A stretch of DNA of 64,000 nucleotides from the NCBI RefSeq assembly GCF_058153355.1, contig NZ_CM177019.1; one strand, given 5' to 3'. This document shows, piece by piece, positions 35,110 through 60,287 of this stretch. The notes under the pieces are model-generated. The model saw only the letters and a program-made list of their open reading frames with translations, was not told where the DNA came from and ran no database searches. Made by a program: the position numbers and the translations under genes. The stretch's first letter is position 1. Every line of letters begins with the position of its first letter.

Positions 35110-35282
35110 CAAGTTCTTTTGTGTTGCATTGCTGGCGTAAATGTCAGCAATGCAGCATTTCCTCACGATTCTCCTTTGACGATCGCACTTTTTGCTCGTT
35201 ATGATGGCGTCGCTAGCCTCAGTAAATCCTTACTCCGGCGGTGCGCAACCTGTGCGCGTGAACCACTATCTGAATGCTCATC

Positions 35283-36215
35283 ATGCCGAAATTTCGAGTT
35301 TCTTTATTTAGCCTGGCCCTGATGCTGGCTGTGCCTTTTGCGCCGCAGGCCGTTGCGAAAACGGCAGCCGCTACCACCGCTTCACAACCGGAAATTGCTT
35401 CCGGTAGCGCGATGATTGTTGATCTGAATACCAACAAAGTGATCTATTCGAACCACCCGGATCTGGTGCGTCCGATTGCGTCTATCAGTAAATTAATGAC
35501 CGCGATGGTCGTGCTGGATGCGCGACTGCCGCTGGATGAAAAACTAAAAGTGGATATCAGCCAGACGCCGGAGATGAAAGGGGTCTATTCGCGCGTACGA
35601 CTGAACAGCGAAATCAGCCGTAAAGATATGCTGTTGCTGGCGCTGATGTCTTCAGAAAACCGCGCGGCGGCAAGCCTTGCGCACCATTATCCCGGTGGCT
35701 ACAAAGCCTTTATTAAGGCGATGAATGCGAAAGCGAAATCGCTCGGAATGAACAACACGCGCTTTGTTGAACCGACCGGATTGTCGGTGCATAACGTTTC
35801 AACTGCCCGTGACTTAACCAAACTGCTTATTGCCAGCAAACAATATCCATTGATCGGGCAGTTAAGTACTACCCGGGAAGATATGGCAACCTTCTCTAAC
35901 CCGACGTATACGCTGCCGTTCCGCAATACTAACCATCTGGTGTATCGCGATAACTGGAATATTCAGTTAACCAAAACCGGTTTTACCAATGCGGCGGGCC
36001 ATTGTCTGGTGATGCGCACGGTTATCAATAATAAACCGGTGGCGCTGGTAGTGATGGATGCGTTTGGCAAATATACCCATTTTGCCGATGCCAGCCGCCT
36101 GCGTACCTGGATTGAAACCGGTAAAGTGATGCCAGTTCCGGCAGCAGCGTTGAGCTATAAAAAACAAAAAGCCGCCCAGATGGCGGCGGCGGGGCAGACG
36201 GCGCAGAACGATTAA
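35283..36215 (+). CDS. pbpG: D-alanyl-D-alanine endopeptidase PBP7
   Basis: 310-aa product with signal peptide and active-site SxxK (SISKLMT) and SxN motifs. Confidence 0.9.
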
Positions 36216-49180: not shown

Positions 49181-51172
49181 TTACTCAAGCAAGGTTAATA
49201 ATTGTTCGCAAAGCAAAACGCAGTTATTCATTGCTTCTCCCCGTGCCTCGCCTTCTGTATTACGAAATTGTCCCAACACATGTGCCAGCCGATAAAAACC
49301 CATCGCGGTGAGTTCATTGACCAGCAACTCTGACTGACTAATGGCACTCTGTTCCTGATAGCGCCAGCCATTATGGAGCAGTTGAATAAGCAACGCCTGA
49401 CAGCGCATCAGTAACTGATGAGTGGTAGACGGTACAGGCAGAACGCTGGCAGAAGGTAGCGGTGCCACAGGCGCAGTTTCTGCGTCCAGCGCCCAGGCGC
49501 GGGTTTTTGTCATCATCACCCGTGGTTCCAGTGTCAATTGCCCCTCTACAAAACTGACAAAGCCAGAAACCAGACTCACGGGGTCGTCTGTTTGTTGTAA
49601 CAGAGCTGCCATGCGTTCAACGGCAAAAGGAGAACAGGCAGATGCCGGAAGGGATAACGTCAGCACATTATCGTCACCTTCGCCACTGATTACCTGCGCA
49701 TCCAGTGTCTGCCGACTGCTGTCCCAACCGAGTGAAATGCACTCTTCTACTGGCAGAATAAATAAGTTATCGACCTGGTTAAGCTGTCGTATGGCGGCTG
49801 GCGGACGTTGGCGTAAATATTCCCGCAAAGCCACAATGCCCGGCTGGCGCAGTGGTGCGCTCAACATTTGCCAGGCATCAGGCGACAGCGGAACAACACT
49901 GCTTAAGCGGTTGCGGGTAGCTAATAGCAACTCGCCATCAGCACTGCGTTTTGCTGCTTGTGAAACAATTTGCCCACCCGCCAGCGCGCCAGCCTGAAAA
50001 CTAAACAGCCGCCGTTTTGCCGCTGGAGAGTTATCCTGTTCACTTCTCGGCCAACTGCGCGAAAGATGCAAAATACTGCCGGTGTCGGGATCGGTGAACC
50101 AGATGCGTAAACCATACCGCTCATTATCCTGCCAGCAACGCATACCTAGTGACACCAGCCGCAAATGATCAAGCTTTGCTTCGCCAGCAATGCCTGCGCC
50201 AATGACCGTGCGCCACGGTATGGGCGGTACTTCACCGACACTGTCACGTCGCGCCATCTCTTGTGCACTGTTCAAGCGACTGGTTAACGCCGCAAGCTGG
50301 CACAAGCATTTTCCGGCATGATAGTAGCTGGCGCGGGCGTGGAAGGCATCAACGCTTGCCCGTAGCTGTCGTAGTGATTCACTTACCCAACGCCAGTTGC
50401 AGCGTTCCGCCGCTTGCTGCGCGCGGCTGAAAGCGGCCTCGTAGTGGATTGACGGTTGGCTGATGCCTCCCAGCCATAATGCCTGACTTAATTGCTGAAC
50501 ATATTGACGACATGCTTTACCTTCGTCGCTGGAAAACGGATCGTCAGATGATGTGACGTGTTCACTGTGCATCTGCCAGATCAAATGAGTAAATTCTGCT
50601 TGTTGATTTTTGGCCTCGACGAAGGCCTGCACAGCCAGTGCTACGTGTTCACACAGCGTTCCTTCAATACAATCACAACGGGCGAAACGAATGCTGCTGC
50701 GGGAATAAAAACGCACATCGCTCATCGGTAAGCGGGCAGAGGGAATTTCGCCCGGCGTGCAGAACAACTCAATGGTGATGCCTTTAGCGACCAGCGCCTG
50801 CGCGCGTTTGCGCGTGGTATTGGGCAGGGTAGCCAGTTCTTCCTGCCAGATTGCCGGATCCCACTCTTCTTCTTTTTCCGTAGGCTGGGCGGTGGCACAA
50901 AGTCGTTGATAACTTAACACCAGCATCACGCGATGACGGCACATGCCGCTGGCCCCGCAGCTGCATTGAGCCTCTTTCAGTGCCTGACTGTTCGCCAGCC
51001 GGGTACGGACACCGTCACTGAACGTGGCGATTAAAGCGCCGTTCTCATGGCAGATTTCCGGGACATTGCCATTTTCCAGTTCCTTAAGGCTGCGCTTCAC
51101 AAAACCAGCATTGCTTAACGCCGTCAGGGCCTGCGGTGTCAGTTCTAATAATTCCGGACGTAGTGAATTCAT
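49181..51172 (-). CDS. yehQ: SWIM zinc-finger protein YehQ
   Basis: Start MNSLRPELLELTPQ overlaps the yehP stop (ATGA); two CxCx5CxH SWIM motifs visible (CSCGASGMCRH and CDCIEGTLCEH). Confidence 0.85.
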   Translation of the reverse strand: MNSLRPELLELTPQALTALSNAGFVKRSLKELENGNVPEICHENGALIATFSDGVRTRLANSQALKEAQCSCGASGMCRHRVMLVLSYQRLCATAQPTEKEEEWDPAIWQEELATLPNTTRKRAQALVAKGITIELFCTPGEIPSARLPMSDVRFYSRSSIRFARCDCIEGTLCEHVALAVQAFVEAKNQQAEFTHLIWQMHSEHVTSSDDPFSSDEGKACRQYVQQLSQALWLGGISQPSIHYEAAFSRAQQAAERCNWRWVSESLRQLRASVDAFHARASYYHAGKCLCQLAALTSRLNSAQEMARRDSVGEVPPIPWRTVIGAGIAGEAKLDHLRLVSLGMRCWQDNERYGLRIWFTDPDTGSILHLSRSWPRSEQDNSPAAKRRLFSFQAGALAGGQIVSQAAKRSADGELLLATRNRLSSVVPLSPDAWQMLSAPLRQPGIVALREYLRQRPPAAIRQLNQVDNLFILPVEECISLGWDSSRQTLDAQVISGEGDDNVLTLSLPASACSPFAVERMAALLQQTDDPVSLVSGFVSFVEGQLTLEPRVMMTKTRAWALDAETAPVAPLPSASVLPVPSTTHQLLMRCQALLIQLLHNGWRYQEQSAISQSELLVNELTAMGFYRLAHVLGQFRNTEGEARGEAMNNCVLLCEQLLTLLE

Positions 51173-52305
51173 GACTGAAGATTCTCCGCAAGCCAGGTAG
51201 CCAGTTCGCCCGGCGTCATTGCGGCTATTTGTGCGCCGACATTTACCAGCGCCTGGGCTGTATCGCGGTCGTAGCAAGGTGTTGCGGTGCTATCGAGCGC
51301 TGCCAGTCCCAGCACTTTGATGCCGCTCTGGACACACTTTTTCACCTGATGCGTCAGCAATGATGATGAACCCCCTTCATAAAAATCGCTCACGAGGATG
51401 ATGACGCTTTTCGCTGGTTGTTCAATAAGTTGCCGACCATATTCCACGGCGCTGGCGATATTGGTCCCGCCATCCAGCTGTACTTTCATTAATAACTCTA
51501 CCGGATCGGCAACGTCTGCCGTGAGATCGACGACGCTTGTGTCAAAAGCGACCAGATGGGTGCGGATACCGGGTAACTGCCATAAACAGGCCGCCATCAC
51601 CGCTGAGTGGATCACCGAATCGACCATTGAGCCGCTTTGATCAACCAGTAACACCAGCTGCCATTGTTCGCTATGGCGTTTAATTCGGCTGTTAAAGCGG
51701 GGGGATTCGATATACAACTTGCCGTGTTGCGGGTGCCAGTGTTGCAGGTTGGCGCGCAGAGTACTTTTGAAATCGAAATTACGTGCCAGTGGAATAAATG
51801 AGCGGCGACGGCGATCGCGGACACCTGAAAAAGCCTGACGAACTTCCTTTGCCAGTCGCGCCATAATTTCTTCAACAACCTGGCGCACTATCCGGCGGGC
51901 GGCAGCCAGCACTTCGGGATTCATCAGATGTTTGGTGTGCAAAACGGCGCGTAGCAGGCTTTCAGAAGGCTGCATACGCTCCAGCACGTCGAGATTCGTC
52001 ACCACATCTTCAATGCCGTAGCGCAGTACGGCATCGCTTTCCAGCCGCTCAATCACCCGTTGCGGAAATAGTGTGTGAATACTGTTGATCCACTCAGGGG
52101 TGGTGAGATTTGAGTCACCTAATCCACCGGAGCGTTCACCACGCTGGAGCCGTTCAGGATCGCGCCCATACAGCCACTCCAGCGCGTGGTCTATCTGCCG
52201 GGCATTGTCATCCAGCCCACAAAGCGTCGTTTCTGCCGCTTCGCCAAGAATTAATCGCCAGCGTTGTAGCTCACGAGTGGTCAGAAGATCGTTCAGTTCA
52301 GACAT
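51169..52305 (-). CDS. yehP: von Willebrand factor A (VWA) domain protein YehP
   Basis: 378-aa product from MSELNDLLTTRELQRW; MIDAS motif DxSxS in LVLLVDQSGSM. Confidence 0.85.
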   Translation of the reverse strand: MSELNDLLTTRELQRWRLILGEAAETTLCGLDDNARQIDHALEWLYGRDPERLQRGERSGGLGDSNLTTPEWINSIHTLFPQRVIERLESDAVLRYGIEDVVTNLDVLERMQPSESLLRAVLHTKHLMNPEVLAAARRIVRQVVEEIMARLAKEVRQAFSGVRDRRRRSFIPLARNFDFKSTLRANLQHWHPQHGKLYIESPRFNSRIKRHSEQWQLVLLVDQSGSMVDSVIHSAVMAACLWQLPGIRTHLVAFDTSVVDLTADVADPVELLMKVQLDGGTNIASAVEYGRQLIEQPAKSVIILVSDFYEGGSSSLLTHQVKKCVQSGIKVLGLAALDSTATPCYDRDTAQALVNVGAQIAAMTPGELATWLAENLQS

Positions 52306-54577
52306 GGAAAACTCCCCAGTGTTGCAGTGATGCCAGTGCCTGCTGTTCGAGTTGTTGATGATGTGCAATGGCTTGCGGTGGACAATGCAACGGCATTTGC
52401 AGCGCTGAAACGGGAAGCTGTGCGAGCTGGTAATGCTCAAGCACCTGATGCGCCAGCGTCCCGCGTTCTCGTGGTGGTAGCCAGGCCATCGCCGCGCGTA
52501 AATCGGGCAGGGCGTTAATAAAATCGTCGTCACTCAGTTGATTTAAATGACTACTGAAACCGGCGATAAATGCCGGCTGACAGGCCAGTTGATGGCGGGC
52601 CAGCGCCAGCAAACCGTGCAGCGCCTCGCCAGATTGTGCCGGGGATAATTGTGCCAGCATCGTCAGCGCCGCTTCGGCACTGGCGTTGGGATGTTCCAGA
52701 CGCATCAGCGCGCCAAGGGCCGCACCGCGATCCAGCGCTGGGGCATGAATCGCCTGACTGCGACGTTCCAGTAAGGCTACCGCCGCAGAAAGCGAAACGC
52801 CGGGTAAATTAACGCCGCTATTTAGATCGCGCAGGATATGGCAAAGCGCCTGCCAGCTATGCAGGTGAGCGTGAAACTCCTTCTCATCCGGCCTGCCGTT
52901 GGATTCACATAGCCACAGTGTGCGATCGATAGCCGCGTATAACGTCGTCTGTAATATCTGCGCGCCTTGCATACCGCTGATTTCATCGAGCTGCCACAAG
53001 GCGTAAAGCACTTCCAGCGCCTGGCCCATTTCGGCAAACTGATTTTCCTTGGCGATTAATAATGTGAGTTGTTCCAGTAATTGCTGACTGAAGGACGCCA
53101 GACCCGCTAACGCGGCCTGGCTAAGACATGTGGTGATGCCGCTGATTCCACCCGCGTCCAGCATATCGGCTTCTAATTTATTGCGTGCGGCCTCCTGGAG
53201 TGTGGCACCAAAGCAGGCGGCTTCAATCAATGCCGCATGTTGGCTAAGTGGCTGGGTTAATGTCCAGCGTTCTTCACCGTTGCCCGCCAGCGTCAGTGTA
53301 CTTCCTTGCTCGCGCACAATGCCGGGAATCTCCAGTATTACCAACTGATGTAGCACCTGACTTTGCGCCAGTCCATCGGGGGTAAAGCGATTTAAGGTAA
53401 GCTCCGCCGGAAGAGAGATTCCGGTACGTTCCAGTTCGTAGGTGACATCTTTTGGCAGAGGTGGCTGTGGCGTCGAGGGGGCAAGTTTACCGAATCCGTC
53501 ACCTGCTAATGTGTCTATCAACGTTACCAGTATCGGATCGGTATCGGGATGAATAACGTCGCGATAGCTCCACGGCAACGGCGCATTCAAGGCTTCTTTA
53601 ATCAGCGAGCCTGCTATGGCATCCAGCCAGTCAGTGCGTAACGGTAGTGTATGACCGCGCAACTGTGCCAGCGCCATCGCATGTAAATGAGCGGCAGCCA
53701 TATCCGCGGTTGAAGCAGGCAATTTGTGCTGGCGCAAACGGGTAAGAACCGTTTTTAGTAGTTGTTCACCTGCCTGCTGCAAGCCCCACCGCCAGCACCA
53801 GTTTTGCCAGACCGGGGCAGGCATTCCTGAAAGGTATCCTGCCAGCACATCAAGGCGCTTTTCACTGTATGGCGTGAGATAGCAACCTGTAACGGCATCA
53901 TCCTGTGAGAGCAATTCTGGCTTGTTAATTTCTTGCGGGCATTCGCGCCACATTTTTGCCAGTGCCGGAGCGTGCCAGCCTCCGCAGACGACTAATACGT
54001 CGCCATTATTTTGCTGCATCGCCCATGCAATCCAGCGGGCCATAAAGGCTTCGCGCTGACGATTGAGTGCATCGCCGGAGGCGTCGCCCCGCAGTTGTGC
54101 AAAATAGTGCGCCAGTGCAGAGGGTAATATAGTTTGCTGGCTTTCATCTTCGAACAAGTGATCCCACAAGGTGTCGCTGTTATCCATGCGGGTGGCACGC
54201 AGCAGAAAGGCCTGGCTTTCCTCTTGCATATCAGGCGAATCATCCTCTTCTTCACTTTGTGCCCAGCAAGGCAAATCGATGAAGTAAGTTTGTGCCTGAA
54301 TACGACGTGCGGCTTGTAGCGCCTGCCACTCCGGCGAAAATTCAGCAAATGGCGTCCAGGCACCACGCCCGGGGGCCGCACCGTCCTGATACTGGCAATA
54401 ACTGTAAATAGCTACCGGAAGCTGGTGGGCTAACAACAGTTCGTCTACCCGGTCATTAAAATCAGCCGGGCCTTCAATCAACACGTATCGTGGCCGCTGG
54501 CTTTCGATTAACGATTTCACCAGCCGGGCGCAGGCCGGACTATGATGCCGGATGCCGACAATTAACGGCTCGCTCAT
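52298..54577 (-). CDS. yehM: Large uncharacterised protein YehM
   Basis: 759-aa product from MSEPLIVGIRHHSPACARLV; no recognisable catalytic motif by eye; sits between the AAA+ and VWA genes. Confidence 0.85.
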   Translation of the reverse strand: MSEPLIVGIRHHSPACARLVKSLIESQRPRYVLIEGPADFNDRVDELLLAHQLPVAIYSYCQYQDGAAPGRGAWTPFAEFSPEWQALQAARRIQAQTYFIDLPCWAQSEEEDDSPDMQEESQAFLLRATRMDNSDTLWDHLFEDESQQTILPSALAHYFAQLRGDASGDALNRQREAFMARWIAWAMQQNNGDVLVVCGGWHAPALAKMWRECPQEINKPELLSQDDAVTGCYLTPYSEKRLDVLAGYLSGMPAPVWQNWCWRWGLQQAGEQLLKTVLTRLRQHKLPASTADMAAAHLHAMALAQLRGHTLPLRTDWLDAIAGSLIKEALNAPLPWSYRDVIHPDTDPILVTLIDTLAGDGFGKLAPSTPQPPLPKDVTYELERTGISLPAELTLNRFTPDGLAQSQVLHQLVILEIPGIVREQGSTLTLAGNGEERWTLTQPLSQHAALIEAACFGATLQEAARNKLEADMLDAGGISGITTCLSQAALAGLASFSQQLLEQLTLLIAKENQFAEMGQALEVLYALWQLDEISGMQGAQILQTTLYAAIDRTLWLCESNGRPDEKEFHAHLHSWQALCHILRDLNSGVNLPGVSLSAAVALLERRSQAIHAPALDRGAALGALMRLEHPNASAEAALTMLAQLSPAQSGEALHGLLALARHQLACQPAFIAGFSSHLNQLSDDDFINALPDLRAAMAWLPPRERGTLAHQVLEHYQLAQLPVSALQMPLHCPPQAIAHHQQLEQQALASLQHWGVFHV

Positions 54578-54587
54578 GCATCTTTCC

Positions 54588-55676
54588 TCACGGCAGGCGG
54601 TGGCGAGCTTGATAATAAGCCTGCCAGTGAGCTTCTTTATGTGTAGCGACACGTTGTTCGAAGTAACGGCGCAGACGTGCGCGATCTTCTTCGTTATCTT
54701 TGACGATGGTTCCGGCAATACAGTCCACCAGGTCGGCTGGCTCCCCCGCGCGATTCGCTAAAAACCAGGCGCGGACGCCCACGGCGTGGGCCACGTTAAC
54801 GGCTTCAGCGGTGGACATAATCGCTGTAAGGGTATCCATTGACGTTTTCTTTTCGCCGTTGGCACGCAGATCGCGGAAGGTGCGTACCAGTAACTCAAGT
54901 ACCGCGTCAGGCACTTTATGCGGAATACCGCTATGGGCCAACAAACGCGCCGAAGCACTGGCGACCAGTTCCAGCTCCTGGGCGAAATCCATAATCGGAA
55001 AAACCGTTTCAAAATCGAATCGGCGTTTTAGTGCCGCGCTCATTTCATTAACGCCGCGATCGCGGGTATTGGCGGTGACAATAATATTAAAGCCTTCCCG
55101 CGCATAGAGCTGACTGGCTTCACCAGTGAGTTCCGGCACCGTCATAACCCTGTCAGAAAGCATACCTAACAGACAGTCTTGTACTTCCAGTGGTGTACGC
55201 GTTATCTCTTCAAAACGGACAATTTTGCCGTCGCGCATTCCCTGGTAGAGCGGGGCAGGGACCAGCGCTTCCGTTGACGGACCATGATTAATAAGCAGGG
55301 CGTAGTTCCAGCCGTACTTGATTTGATCTTCGGTGGTAGATGCGCCGCCCTGGATAGTTAACCCAGCATCGCCGCTAATAGCGGTTGCCAGTAATTCAGA
55401 CAGGAGAGATTTTGCGGTGCCAGGTTCCCCCACCAACATCAAACCGCGCCCGGTAGCAAGAGTGACTAACATGCGTTCGACAGCGGAGGGACTAATCACG
55501 ACTTTACGGCTGATATTTTGCGCGCTATCGCCAAGAATAAAAGAACGGGCCGCAGGCAAACTTAACTGCCAACCGGGCGGGCAAGGTGCGTTATCATTTT
55601 GCTTTAATTTTGCCAGTTCATCGGCGTATAACACAGCGGCAGGCGGACGCTGCAGATGATTATTCTGCGGTGACAT
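54588..55676 (-). CDS. yehL: MoxR-family AAA+ ATPase YehL
   Basis: 362-aa ORF with Walker A GEPGTAKS and the AAA+ core; first gene of the yehLMPQ operon. Confidence 0.9.
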   Translation of the reverse strand: MSPQNNHLQRPPAAVLYADELAKLKQNDNAPCPPGWQLSLPAARSFILGDSAQNISRKVVISPSAVERMLVTLATGRGLMLVGEPGTAKSLLSELLATAISGDAGLTIQGGASTTEDQIKYGWNYALLINHGPSTEALVPAPLYQGMRDGKIVRFEEITRTPLEVQDCLLGMLSDRVMTVPELTGEASQLYAREGFNIIVTANTRDRGVNEMSAALKRRFDFETVFPIMDFAQELELVASASARLLAHSGIPHKVPDAVLELLVRTFRDLRANGEKKTSMDTLTAIMSTAEAVNVAHAVGVRAWFLANRAGEPADLVDCIAGTIVKDNEEDRARLRRYFEQRVATHKEAHWQAYYQARHRLP

Positions 55677-55786
55677 ATATTCATCCCTGAAATGTATTAA
55701 TCAAATAAACGATATTTTACGCGCAATAAATGTTTGGCGCATTAGTTGTTTGAGCGGAAAATATCTGGAAAGCAGATCACAGTAAA

Positions 55787-55868
55787 TAAAAAAACCTGCT
55801 GGTGAGGCAGGTTCTTTTATTTACTACTTTGACGATAACTTGCTGATTGTGCAACATTTCGTACCAAC
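55787..55868 (-). ncRNA. orzO: Candidate antisense sRNA antitoxin (OrzO-like) transcribed divergently from the toxin gene
   Basis: Minus-strand -10 TATAAT (plus coordinates 55875-55880) with a TTGCAA -35 at 55898-55903; predicted transcript starts at the reverse complement of an 18-nt repeat (55851-55868) and ends at a strong terminator (55794-55822). Symbol is from memory of the EHEC locus and is not verified. Confidence 0.4.
55794..55822 (-). terminator. Rho-independent terminator (strong on the minus strand, weaker bidirectional)
   Basis: acctgc-tggtgagg-gcaggt hairpin flanked by aaataaaaaa on one side and tcttttattt on the other. Confidence 0.6.
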
Positions 55869-55897
55869 GAATGAATTATAACCATATCCACATCCCG

Positions 55898-55925
55898 TTG
55901 CAATTCACTAAGCGAGATTTATAAT
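55898..55925 (+). promoter_or_regulatory. Sigma70-type promoter for the small toxin mRNA (long 5' UTR)
   Basis: -35 ttgcaa (55898-55903), 16-bp spacer, -10 tataat (55920-55925); predicted start about 174 nt upstream of the toxin ATG. Confidence 0.4.
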
Positions 55926-56106
55926 CGTGCCCGTTGGGAGGTTGTGCCGGATTGAACCAATTTCAAGTCCTGGCTGCCGGACGGGGGGTGCCGCAGGTGG
56001 TGCCCTGATCCGGAGAGCAACGTTTCGTACCAACATACGTAAACCAGTATCGACAGGCAGTGTAAGGGTAAGGTGCTGGTGTTGCGCTCCTTAATAAGGA
56101 GAGCGG

Positions 56107-56196
56107 ATGGACACGCTGACACAAAAGTCAACCGTGCTCATTGCCGTACTGGAGTTATTAGTGGCTCTGTTGCGGTTGATTGATTTGTTGAAGTAA
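56107..56196 (+). CDS. zorO: Type I toxin-like small hydrophobic peptide (29 aa), ZorO-like
   Basis: ORF MDTLTQKSTVLIAVLELLVALLRLIDLLK preceded by SD aaggagagcgg-ATG; amphipathic single helix resembling TisB/DinQ-class toxins. Symbol assigned from memory, moderate certainty. Confidence 0.55.
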   Translation: MDTLTQKSTVLIAVLELLVALLRLIDLLK

Positions 56197-56218
56197 CGGG
56201 CAAATTGAAACGCATCTA

Positions 56219-56245
56219 AGGGGGAATACCGTTTCCCCCTTTAAT
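56219..56245 (+). terminator. Terminator hairpin after the toxin ORF (also at the 3' end of convergent yehK)
   Basis: agggggaa-taccgt-ttccccct followed by ttaataaagctattttt. Confidence 0.45.
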
Positions 56246-56249
56246 AAAG

Positions 56250-56570
56250 CTATTTTTCTATTTGTTGGATGAATATATTTTGTAGTTCACGATTAAAAAT
56301 TGCTATTACAGTTTTAGGTGATTCACCTCGTAATTTACGCTCATCAATAAATTCATCTCTTATATAAATCAACGCATCATTTATTAGCGGGTCGACATCT
56401 TCTCGATCACGTTGATGAAATGTTGGATGTAGCCGGAATCGCTCCAACCGGTAGACGGAACCAGTAAATAATTCAGAGCATTTATGGATCTCAAGTCTGA
56501 AGGAAAACGGATCTTCAGGTACAGGGACTTCATAATCATAAGTAGCGACCAGCTCTTTTTGCACGATCAT
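56250..56570 (-). CDS. yehK: Small uncharacterised protein YehK
   Basis: 106-aa ORF immediately downstream of yehI on the same strand. Confidence 0.8.
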   Translation of the reverse strand: MIVQKELVATYDYEVPVPEDPFSFRLEIHKCSELFTGSVYRLERFRLHPTFHQRDREDVDPLINDALIYIRDEFIDERKLRGESPKTVIAIFNRELQNIFIQQIEK

Positions 56571-56630: not shown

Positions 56631-59600
56631 TTAATGGAAAATGACGTCAGGTGCGCTTAACGCTTCACTCAAATCAAACGTATCGAGTTCGGCAAAAGTG
56701 ACAGATTTATTGTCACGGTACACTCGAAGAGAACGGAAGCTCATTAGCGCTTTGCTATCAGCACTGTAGTGGTTAAAACCGGGTGAAAACTTAAGGACCA
56801 GCCGATACTCGCCCAGGTCATAGACACATGCGTCCTCAAAACCTGACTCCCAGCCTTTGTATCGCATTCCCATAAGTTGCCCAACGGTTGCGGATTTACC
56901 TTCCCAGCGAGTCAGGCTGTTACTGGCTGACTCGTCAGGTGTGAGCAGCACTGTGCGCCGCATCAACTGGCGAAAAGGCGGCATAATTTCGTAATCGGCA
57001 AAAACCTGTGCAAATTCACTGCGCATTTCTGCTGTCATTTCTAACGGGTGGGCAATGCCAATCAGAGCATCCGCAGGCAGGTCAATTGGCTCATCTTGTG
57101 CGTTGCAGAACTCCCCCTCAGCGGCCACGCGAAAGGCGTTGAGTAAACGACGCGGTTCATTTGCCGGATAAACCGCCCATATTAATCGCTGAGTAACCAG
57201 GCGAGTAAAGGGATGATTAACAAACAGAGAATGAAAATCTGCCAGCGACCAGCGTCGGGTGGTGCGTAGGGCAGTTTCAAGACGCGGGAGCAGGTTTTTG
57301 CTCACCTGAGTGGCATCTTTTTTTAGCCCTTTTAGTCGGGCCAGTGCCTCGGGTGCTTTCAGCTGATCGTCATCGGCGCGCAACCGGGGAACACTTTTCT
57401 GGCGAACGTTTTGCTGATCAAAGATAACCGGGTTGAGGTTTTCATCGAAGCGAACGGTAAACTGCCGGGGTCCAAAATCAAATATCAACGCCTGCGGATC
57501 ATCCAGGCCCAGTGTTGGGACTAATCTGTCCGCTAACTCTTCCTGGCTTAGTCCACGATTTTCTGCGACCACCTGAAGAAATTCCGCCGCGTTATCACGT
57601 AAGGGACGGGATTTCGCCCGTTGCGATATATGATGCAGCTGTATCAGCGCCATATCATTATTCATCAGGGTAAGTATGTTCAGGCCACTGACGGCGCGGG
57701 CAGATTTGCCTTCCTGTGGCCAGGCGAGGATCTGTGTTGTCAGATCCCGAGCCGTGCTTTCGTCACCAAAGAGACTTAACGCCAAAAAAGCCCAGTTGTC
57801 TTTTGCGGGGGCGCCAGCCTGTTGCCAGGCGGTGAAGAGATCCCAGGCAAAAGCGGCCAGCGTTTGTGGCTGGCAGAACGTTTTCAGTTGTTCCAGCCCA
57901 CAATAAAAACGTCCGCCCTGGGTAAAGCGCAGCATTTCGCCGATAATTTCCAGAGCATCATCAGTAACATGTTGATTATTCGTGATAATTCTCGGTCTGG
58001 ACCACATTGTCGGATGCCAGAAATCAGGGGCTTTGGGAATGCGTGCCGGGTAAATGTCCATTGGACCCTGTTTAAGTAATTGCTCCAGGGCAGGCCATAC
58101 ATCTGTATGCTGCCAGCGGTTTGCCACGGTTTGCAGTAATTCGCCATGCCCTTGTTCATACAGTAAACGCAGAGCGCTGAGTGCCGCTTCGCTGTTATCG
58201 CCAGACCTGGCAAAGATTAATGGGATCAGCGCCGTAGCCGTATGCTCCGGCCATTGTAAAATCCACTGGCGAGCCAGATTACGCTGGCCCGCAAAACGAT
58301 GCCAGACGCGGGCAACGGGCAGCGCCAGTTCTGTTGCGCCAAAATGAATCAGCAGCGGAAATATCTCTTTGGGATGTCGGGCAAAGGCGGTGATTAATCC
58401 GGGCAAAGCATCGGTACCCAGGACACTTAACAGATATTCTACCCCGGTGTAATGAAAATCAGCCGCGACAATTTGTTGCCAGCACGATACCGCCATTTCG
58501 CGCGGCATTTGCGCGATAAGATACAGGTTCCATACTCCCCAACGCTTTTCATCAGTGTAATTAAATTTGCGTTGGAAAGTTCGCCACCCCTCCATCAACG
58601 CAACACTATCTTGTGCCAGTAATGCGCTGGCGGCCTCTTCCCGGTAGTGTTTATTTTCATTCTGTTTTGCCTGATAATTGAGCAATCTTCCTACTGAAGT
58701 ATGTGTCTCTAGTTGATCGGTATCCAGAGCATCCAATTGTCCTTTGAGAATAAACTCATTAAACTTCCACCTGTGATCTTCAAAACCTAATTCCCGCAAG
58801 AAGGTATCCGCCCCTCTGTTAGCAAGACGTTCGTCAAAAGACATGGCGCTAAAATGGTCAATTGCAGTTTGCTGTTCCGGCGTCCAGTGTTTATTCGGCG
58901 ACCTGTACGCTTGCGGTACAAGCGTAAGTTCAGGTAGCGAAAAGTGAGTTATGGAAGCCTTTTTCCTGCCACGCCACGGTGGTGAAACGAGGATTTCAGG
59001 CAGACTACTGTTATCGGTGCTATCAATAACCGGTTTTGGCGAAGCCGATAAATAACTATTCACCACTGCCCGGGCTTGAGTACTTAACGACGGGATCACC
59101 TCTTCTGCCAGTTGTGGCTGCGATGCCATCAGCGTTTGTAACAGCGTACGCCAGTATTCATCACGTGCTTTTTGCTGTGCAGGCAGCTTTTTGTCTTCGA
59201 TGATAGGATAACCAGGGCGCGTAGGGGGGGCTTTTAACGCCAGTAGTTCTGCCAGTGCGGCGAGCGTCGCATGGGGAAAGTTTTTACTGTATTTAGCCAC
59301 ACGCTGCAGGCTGGGTTTGTTTTTATCGGCAACTAACAGCAAGATGCGAATAACTTGCGGATGGTTAATTTGTACCAGCAGGCTACCGCAATCTTCTTTA
59401 TGGGCATACATCGCGAGGCGTGGAACGGCTGCAATTCCTTGTTCGCGCAAAAGGGCGGCGCAGGCCGCGTAGCCGAAGTGGTTTTCATGCGACATGTAGC
59501 TGGCTTCGCGATCGCTAAATATATCCTGGCTCCAGTAGCGTTCGAGTTTTCTCACCGCTCTGGGGTCATTAGCAACAACTTTTAACCACTCCTTAGAATG

Positions 59601-60287
59601 AAAATGAGTCCGCGGGCATTCAAGGCCTACCAACTCATTGGCGATTTCTGGTTTCTCCGGGAGGATGAGTGCAATAAAAGGACGGCGAACTTGGGGTAGT
59701 CCTGGCAGTGCGGCAATGAGTTTGTCGGCGCAACGCTGCCAGCAGCTTTCCTCTGCCAGAGAGAGAGGCTTACGCAGTCGGAGATCGAATTCGTTATAGG
59801 TTTCTGAGCGATAACCATAACCATAGCCATAGTCCTCCTTCTGATACTGCAATGTTACTACCAGAGGATCGTTCTCATAACACCGCGCAATAAACTGGCG
59901 TGCAATCACCACCTCAGTCGCATATTCCAGCCCCTCTTGTTGGACGATTTCGTCGAGCAACTGTTGGCTGTCATTTTGCGCGATACAGGCTAGCGCCGCC
60001 ATTGTCCGGGCCGGAATTGAGGGTTTGTGCTCGCCGATCAAGTTGATGGCTTGCGTAATGGCCGACTGCCACTCCAGTGAAAAATTTTCATAACGCCAGA
60101 CAATGTTTTTTTTCTTCTCAGCAATGTGTAGCAATTTATCACCCAGTGTCTGGATGAGGCTTTCAGTGATAACAGGCACCGGTTCGCCCGGCCAATTGCG
60201 ATGGCTGAGTGGTGTTTTGCCTTTTTTATATTTCAGTTCCAGTTGGGCGTTATCCGCCAGCCACGGTAATTCCTTGTCCATGCTCAT
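56631..60287 (-). CDS. yehI: Giant DUF4132-family protein YehI
   Basis: 1218-aa ORF; paralogous to the adjacent molR product (shared blocks such as HLSLAEESCWQRCADKLIAALP...ALILPEKPEIANE). Confidence 0.9.
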   Translation of the reverse strand: MSMDKELPWLADNAQLELKYKKGKTPLSHRNWPGEPVPVITESLIQTLGDKLLHIAEKKKNIVWRYENFSLEWQSAITQAINLIGEHKPSIPARTMAALACIAQNDSQQLLDEIVQQEGLEYATEVVIARQFIARCYENDPLVVTLQYQKEDYGYGYGYRSETYNEFDLRLRKPLSLAEESCWQRCADKLIAALPGLPQVRRPFIALILPEKPEIANELVGLECPRTHFHSKEWLKVVANDPRAVRKLERYWSQDIFSDREASYMSHENHFGYAACAALLREQGIAAVPRLAMYAHKEDCGSLLVQINHPQVIRILLLVADKNKPSLQRVAKYSKNFPHATLAALAELLALKAPPTRPGYPIIEDKKLPAQQKARDEYWRTLLQTLMASQPQLAEEVIPSLSTQARAVVNSYLSASPKPVIDSTDNSSLPEILVSPPWRGRKKASITHFSLPELTLVPQAYRSPNKHWTPEQQTAIDHFSAMSFDERLANRGADTFLRELGFEDHRWKFNEFILKGQLDALDTDQLETHTSVGRLLNYQAKQNENKHYREEAASALLAQDSVALMEGWRTFQRKFNYTDEKRWGVWNLYLIAQMPREMAVSCWQQIVAADFHYTGVEYLLSVLGTDALPGLITAFARHPKEIFPLLIHFGATELALPVARVWHRFAGQRNLARQWILQWPEHTATALIPLIFARSGDNSEAALSALRLLYEQGHGELLQTVANRWQHTDVWPALEQLLKQGPMDIYPARIPKAPDFWHPTMWSRPRIITNNQHVTDDALEIIGEMLRFTQGGRFYCGLEQLKTFCQPQTLAAFAWDLFTAWQQAGAPAKDNWAFLALSLFGDESTARDLTTQILAWPQEGKSARAVSGLNILTLMNNDMALIQLHHISQRAKSRPLRDNAAEFLQVVAENRGLSQEELADRLVPTLGLDDPQALIFDFGPRQFTVRFDENLNPVIFDQQNVRQKSVPRLRADDDQLKAPEALARLKGLKKDATQVSKNLLPRLETALRTTRRWSLADFHSLFVNHPFTRLVTQRLIWAVYPANEPRRLLNAFRVAAEGEFCNAQDEPIDLPADALIGIAHPLEMTAEMRSEFAQVFADYEIMPPFRQLMRRTVLLTPDESASNSLTRWEGKSATVGQLMGMRYKGWESGFEDACVYDLGEYRLVLKFSPGFNHYSADSKALMSFRSLRVYRDNKSVTFAELDTFDLSEALSAPDVIFH

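Follow-up and report, generated by a model that had tools for sequence, protein, structure and literature searches.

In the 64-kb stretch of DNA analysed here (the window), two near-identical words bracket a pair of divergent promoters. The question raised by this locus is whether these words let a small RNA silence a toxin mRNA by base pairing, as an earlier note on this sequence had proposed. Both words were present where they had been placed: the first copy, GCAACATTTCGTACCAAC, lies at 55851-55868 and the second, GCAACGTTTCGTACCAAC, at 56017-56034. They are on the same strand, 166 nt apart, and are identical at 17/18 positions. As the bases bordering the two copies differ on both sides (t/a upstream and g/a downstream), the repeat is 18 nt long; of the length of 18 or 19 nt given previously, the first value held and the second did not.

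The window was searched with a degenerate pattern of the repeat allowing up to 3 mismatches, and only the two known sites matched, the chance expectation being 0.08. A search for direct 18-mer pairs with at least 17/18 identity within 400 nt returned this pair alone from the whole 64 kb, and no comparable 18-mer pair arose in first-order Markov simulations (n = 30). The repeat is real and chance is excluded as its source. A chance similarity, or a functionless remnant passively left by a local duplication, has nothing but the shortness of the repeat in its favour. It is opposed by these counts and by the compensatory conservation across paralogues and species described below and, taken together with the literature, it is refuted; we give it practically no credence.

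The repeat is flanked by yehL (54588-55676, minus strand) on one side and by yehK (56250-56570, minus) and yehI (56631-60287, minus) on the other. The gene order, yehM-yehL, then zor-orz, then yehK-yehI, is that of O157:H7 and of annotated E. coli genomes, and a zor-orz site between these yeh genes matches the original description (PMC2887945). In the genomes inspected, RefSeq annotates neither zorO nor orzO, which gives the assignment of this locus a value as annotation.

The antitoxin side of the locus was recognized by Rfam. The OrzO-P family (RF02083) matched at 55788-55861 on the minus strand with 90.6 bits (gathering score 60) over the full model, positions 1-76. The match stops short of 55868 because the OrzO-P model omits the first 7 nt of the RNA. 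The specificity region V1 of OrzO has been assigned to +9..+11 and reads GAA (PMC3919570), and this places the OrzO +1 at a G opposite window position 55868. With this start, the orzO gene would span 55788-55868 (minus strand) and encode an sRNA of ~81 nt whose 5' seed is followed, in the predicted fold, by a small internal hairpin and an intrinsic terminator. The transcript begins 5'-GUUGGUAC-GAA-AUGUUGC and thus carries the V1 of the O type, at 55858-55860. The first repeat copy (55851-55868, minus strand) corresponds to the first 18 nt of OrzO, 5'-GUUGGUACGAAAUGUUGC, the seed for the zorO mRNA. The proposal that this copy lies at the 5' end of the sRNA and is transcribed as antisense agrees with the +1 derived from the published V1.

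The rho-independent terminator of orzO, a hairpin followed by a U-run, was located at 55788-55818 (minus strand) by the inverted repeat I1, the minimum free energy (MFE) fold and a terminator scan, and it is invariant across the 10 copies compared. This terminator (55781-55825) is built on an almost perfect 19-nt palindrome flanked by an A-run and, at the opposite end, a T-run, so that the scan scored it on either strand. Given its position just upstream of the yehL start codon (55676), it may also insulate yehL against read-through from orzO. Several sub-threshold Rfam matches were also obtained at this spot: ohsC with 28.5 bits (gathering score 50), the Thr and Trp leaders with ~25 bits, and OrzO-P on the plus strand with 25.2 bits. 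These were discarded, since the A-rich stretch, GC stem and U-run common to such terminators explain them. Neither an Rfam scan of the whole window nor the pattern search at up to 3 mismatches revealed a second, zorP/orzP-like copy; both returned this locus alone.

On the toxin side, the published 5' UTR of zorO is 174 nt long. Counted back from the ATG at 56107, this length puts the zorO +1 at 55933, seven bases downstream of the TATAAT at 55920-55925, and the UTR has no indels relative to that of O157:H7 zorO. The zorO mRNA would therefore extend over 55933-56245 (plus strand), comprising the 174-nt 5' UTR, a 29-codon ORF and a terminator. The second repeat copy (56017-56034, plus strand) falls at +85..+102 of this UTR and is the OrzO target. 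It ends 72 nt before the ATG, close to the distance of about 70 nt estimated earlier, and its assignment to the toxin 5' UTR held given the published UTR length. The published EAP region (+73..+102), a putative ribosome standby site, ends with this target; its coordinates, mapped from PMC5397157, correspond to 56005-56034 on the plus strand. Inside this region, at 56011-56016, there is an RBS-like GGAGAG; a GGAG(T/A)G motif has been described in PMC11264685.

The zorO RBS itself, AAGGAG, is at 56096-56101 (position +164, plus strand), coincides with the published RBS and is enclosed in a short hairpin, GCGCTCCTTA / TAAGGAGAGC (inverted repeat I7). A weak direct repeat, family D3, was also seen in the UTR: CCCTGATCCGGAGAGC (56003-56018) and CCTTAATAAGGAGAGC (56089-56104) are 75% identical. 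The two halves have GGAGAGC in common, one at the true RBS and the other within the EAP region immediately 5' of the OrzO target, in keeping with the RBS-like standby motif proposed in PMC11264685.

The ORF downstream, taken from the ORF list and compared with canonical ZorO, lies at 56107-56196 (plus strand) and encodes the hydrophobic 29-aa Zor protein MDTLTQKSTVLIAVLELLVALLRLIDLLK, with the AAGGAG upstream of it. It is identical to ZorO (UniProt ZORO_ECO57, 'Small toxic protein ZorO') at 28/29 positions, and the sole difference is L8S. The zorO terminator, a GGGGGAA...TTCCCCC hairpin followed by TTT at 56220-56245 (plus strand), is conserved in the 10 copies and abuts the 3' end of the convergent yehK.

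Since the same-strand 18-nt word is present in two units transcribed in opposite directions, OrzO is complementary over its first 18 nt to zorO +85..+102. In the RNA duplex, the single A/G difference between the copies becomes a U13·G wobble, and all 18 positions can therefore pair. The trans complementarity, put earlier at about 18 nt, thus amounts to 18 bp including one U·G wobble; without counting the wobble, the duplex has 17 Watson-Crick bp, arranged as 12(1)5. The energy calculated for the 18-nt seed duplex was -30.0 kcal/mol, compared with -13.5 +/- 2.0 kcal/mol for shuffled seeds. A value of -54.9 kcal/mol obtained for the full-length OrzO-mRNA duplex was set aside, as the calculation ignores intramolecular structure and the value is inflated. 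Repression by OrzO is known to need a minimum of 15 continuous or 17 discontinuous base pairs (PMC3919570), and the pairing found in the window, between divergent genes, is no shorter than this. In a survey of 2,439 loci, sufficient pairing was kept in 99.8% (PMC11264685).

Much of what could be asked of this pairing has been answered in published work on the O157:H7-type pair. The earlier note had called for the mapping of both start sites, for compensatory mutations in the two repeat copies and for an in vitro RNA-RNA binding assay, and all three are available. The start sites of zorO-orzO were mapped by primer extension (Fozo 2010, PMC2887945). Chimeras in which OhsC or IstR-1 received the first 18 nt of OrzO showed these nucleotides to be sufficient for repression; a mutation of V1 abolishes repression, and compensatory changes in zorO restore it (Wen 2014, PMC3919570). 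Binding and inhibition of translation were demonstrated in vitro (Wen 2017, PMC5397157), and OrzO shields the mRNA from lead cleavage at the EAP region, +73..+102 (PMC5397157). Repression by OrzO is largely RNase III-dependent and Hfq-independent (PMC3919570), and RNase III-linked cleavage has been published for the OrzO target. In an rnc mutant, too, translation is inhibited by OrzO, which presumably blocks access to the EAP standby site (PMC5397157).

These experiments also bear on a reading in which the repeat copies act as DNA, for example as paired operator sites for a DNA-binding protein on both sides of the divergent promoters. Two direct copies 166 bp apart do bracket the promoter region, and direct repeats that co-vary are compatible with two sites for one protein as well. 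However, in trans tests from separate plasmids and heterologous promoters, repression was observed, was lost upon mutation of the seed and was restored by compensatory mutation (PMC3919570), and probing in vitro showed direct RNA-RNA binding (PMC5397157). An operator function is thereby refuted as the main mechanism, and we consider this reading very improbable. We return to RNA pairing as the function of the repeat.

Publications of 2010-2017 thus already describe the pairing site together with its mechanism and the start sites, and the family is present in Rfam and UniProt. The interpretation given in the earlier note is supported, in that it correctly rediscovered this mechanism. The locus serves as a validation: a real type I toxin-antitoxin module was reconstructed correctly from raw sequence.

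The conservation of the locus was examined in an alignment of 10 copies from E. coli, E. whittamii and two further Escherichia species, with a mean column identity of 92%. The copies fall into three seed types, O, P and Q-like, and the seed and the target change together. Four of the 18 pairs changed on both sides, and 96.3% of the cells were still standard pairs. Such values were reached by only 2 to 5 of 500 shuffles, and registers slid along the alignment were 29-47% paired. This covariation test rests on three distinct sequence types, because a one-genome-per-species scan with an RBS/ATG word yielded too few zor loci to extend it: zor was found there only in E. whittamii and two further Escherichia species, and the E. 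coli representative had an orphan orz only.

Even the imperfections of the duplex are conserved among the O and P copies, which were taken from several Escherichia species. In the copies examined for this (loci L001, L002, L004, L005 and L006), the U13·G wobble was present in every O pair and an A7·G mismatch in every P pair; the Q-like type, represented by one copy, combined a G7·A mismatch with a G5·U wobble. In E. coli K-12 MG1655, the yehL-yehK interval (L007 699-774) is without the toxin and keeps an orphan orzP-type gene (Rfam 99.9 bits), already published as OrzPmg (PMC11264685). At this orphan locus the back-to-back promoter is complete; of the zor 5' UTR, ~45 nt remain, without the target site.

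Transcription of the two genes would start from promoters arranged back to back. The orzO -10 element, TATAAT, is at 55875-55880 (minus strand), 6 nt upstream of the +1, and the zorO -10 element, also TATAAT, is at 55920-55925 (plus strand). Between them, at 55898-55903, lies a palindromic TTGCAA, the predicted -35 of both promoters; the layout is TATAAT (55880-55875, minus strand), 17 nt, TTGCAA, 16 nt, TATAAT (plus strand). The window locus thus carries the -35 TTGCAA and the -10 TATAAT of both family genes together with the 174-nt zorO UTR. The three hexamers and both spacer lengths were invariant in the 10 copies from four Escherichia species, and the spacer sequences varied at 12/17 positions on the orzO side and at 8/16 on the zorO side. 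In Table 3 of PMC11264685, the zor and orz entries each give '-35 (TTGCAA)', and the conservation figures are the same in the two, consistent with a single common hexamer.

A promoter consensus scan of an 800-nt region gave 2 matches, compared with 2.1 in shuffles, which is not significant. As the count does not exceed that of the shuffles, the common -35 is supported by conservation and the mapped start sites and not by the scan. Geometry, conservation and Table 3 all agree with the proposal that the divergent promoters share TTGCAA at 55898-55903, and its use by both promoters is a well-supported prediction. No promoter mutagenesis of zor-orz was found in the zor-orz papers cited here.

A single -35 for both promoters might have a regulatory consequence. 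Since two RNA polymerases cannot occupy one hexamer together, initiation of the toxin and antitoxin transcripts could be mutually exclusive on each chromosome, which would amount to a competitive, possibly stochastic switch. We put this forward tentatively, as a possible but rather doubtful property of the locus. If true, a transcriptional switch would sit upstream of the known post-transcriptional control. No discussion or test of this consequence of a common -35 was found in Wen 2014 or in the 2024 survey (PMC11264685).

The structure of the zorO mRNA was predicted as well. In the MFE fold of the full-length mRNA, the target at +85..+102 is paired with +1..+13. The first 28 nt (55933-55960, plus strand) are, according to the published processing, absent from the translationally more active delta-28 form; upon their removal in the predicted fold, the mean unpaired probability of the target rises from 0.36 to 0.53. 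The predicted fold agrees with the published processing model of zorO. It should be noted that the zorO mRNA (55933-55945) and OrzO both open with GUUGG. [quoted passage not shown] An explicit statement of such mimicry was not found in the zor-orz literature consulted for the mechanism.

[quoted passage not shown] According to the proposed mechanism, two back-to-back sigma-70 promoters centred on one palindromic TTGCAA would drive divergent transcription, leftward from 55868 for the ~81-nt OrzO and rightward from 55933 for the zorO mRNA, which encodes a small membrane toxin. In the full-length mRNA, its own 5' end would sequester the OrzO target, and the loss of the first 28 nt would expose it. 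Binding of OrzO would then block standby-dependent translation and trigger a largely RNase III-dependent decay of the mRNA, so that the toxin is kept off. In this account, our analysis contributes the sequence identities, the family match, the covariation and the promoter geometry, and the RNA mechanism comes from the literature on identical pairing sequences. The strain probably expresses both the zorO and orzO RNAs. That overproduction of the toxin is toxic and that the cognate sRNA rescues the cells through its seed has been shown for EDL933, with identical pairing sequences, and would presumably hold for the window locus.

The one change in the toxin was considered separately. L8S results from a TTA to TCA change in codon 8 (56128-56130), at the start of the hydrophobic helix, and is missing from the other nine copies compared. 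The window could therefore hold a decaying or altered copy, with a toxin inactivated or weakened by L8S and a pairing that is a relic, or with an OrzO repurposed like the orphan OrzP of K-12. The exact L8S sequence of 29 aa was absent from a collection of ~15 billion proteins, in which canonical ZorO was found on at least 1000 contigs; the variant may be rare, or may be missed because ORFs of this size are often not called. In addition, ~30% of E. coli genomes, K-12 among them, have orz without zor (PMC11264685). Nevertheless, the 29-codon ORF is intact, as are the RBS hairpin, the EAP motif, the target, both promoters and both terminators, all of canonical form, and the charged residues published as important for toxicity (K7, E16, R23 and K29) are unchanged. 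Decay is thus unlikely, and the L8S toxin, by analogy with canonical ZorO, would still be toxic. We continue to regard the locus as a functional module.

Two further observations concern the rest of the window. The Rfam motif Peptidase-S11 (RF03039) matched at 35198-35278 on the plus strand with 73.1 bits (gathering score 34.8), and its last bases overlap the start (35274) of a 313-aa ORF, 35274-36215. From the gene order of E. coli, this ORF is probably pbpG. The region 50000-55676, containing yehQ, yehP, yehM and yehL, has 90-95% identity to 5,329 of the 5,339 matching E. coli records. The yehQ-yehL flank is ~98% identical to nine E. coli records, including bovine, goat and Tibetan pig isolates. 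The identity of 90-95% to most E. coli points to an uncommon lineage or a divergent allele of the region.

The closest known relative of the window locus is zorO-orzO of O157:H7 EDL933. Both repeat copies, the A/G difference between them and the V1 GAA are identical base for base in the two; in the reference, the orzO seed is at L001 3773-3790 and the zorO target at L001 3939-3956. Over 471 nt, the loci are 95.8% identical. They have the same -35 and -10 hexamers, the same 17- and 16-nt spacers and the same 174-nt UTR, as well as the same RBS hairpin, EAP motif, terminators and location between yehL and yehK. The differences are minor: the toxin of the window carries L8S, and a small number of substitutions, none of them in a functional element, affect the OrzO linker and the promoter spacers. 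In addition, a single copy occupies the 573-nt yehL-yehK interval of the window, whereas EDL933-type strains have zorP/orzP and zorO/orzO in tandem in 1.24 kb.

The paralogous pairs zorP-orzP and zorQ-orzQ share with the window locus the architecture, the constant bases flanking the seed (GCAAC...CCAAC), the promoters and the toxin family. They differ from it in the central bases of the seed; the V1 of OrzP is ACG, and the window copy belongs to the O type. The pairs do not cross-react (PMC3919570). Two further type I systems of E. coli, tisB-istR-1 and shoB-ohsC, also have a divergent sRNA whose 5' end pairs over ~18-21 nt far upstream of a sequestered RBS, and there too, as proposed for zorO, the pairing site is a standby site in the processed mRNA. 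These two systems are without sequence homology to the window locus and encode different toxins, and tisB is regulated by LexA.
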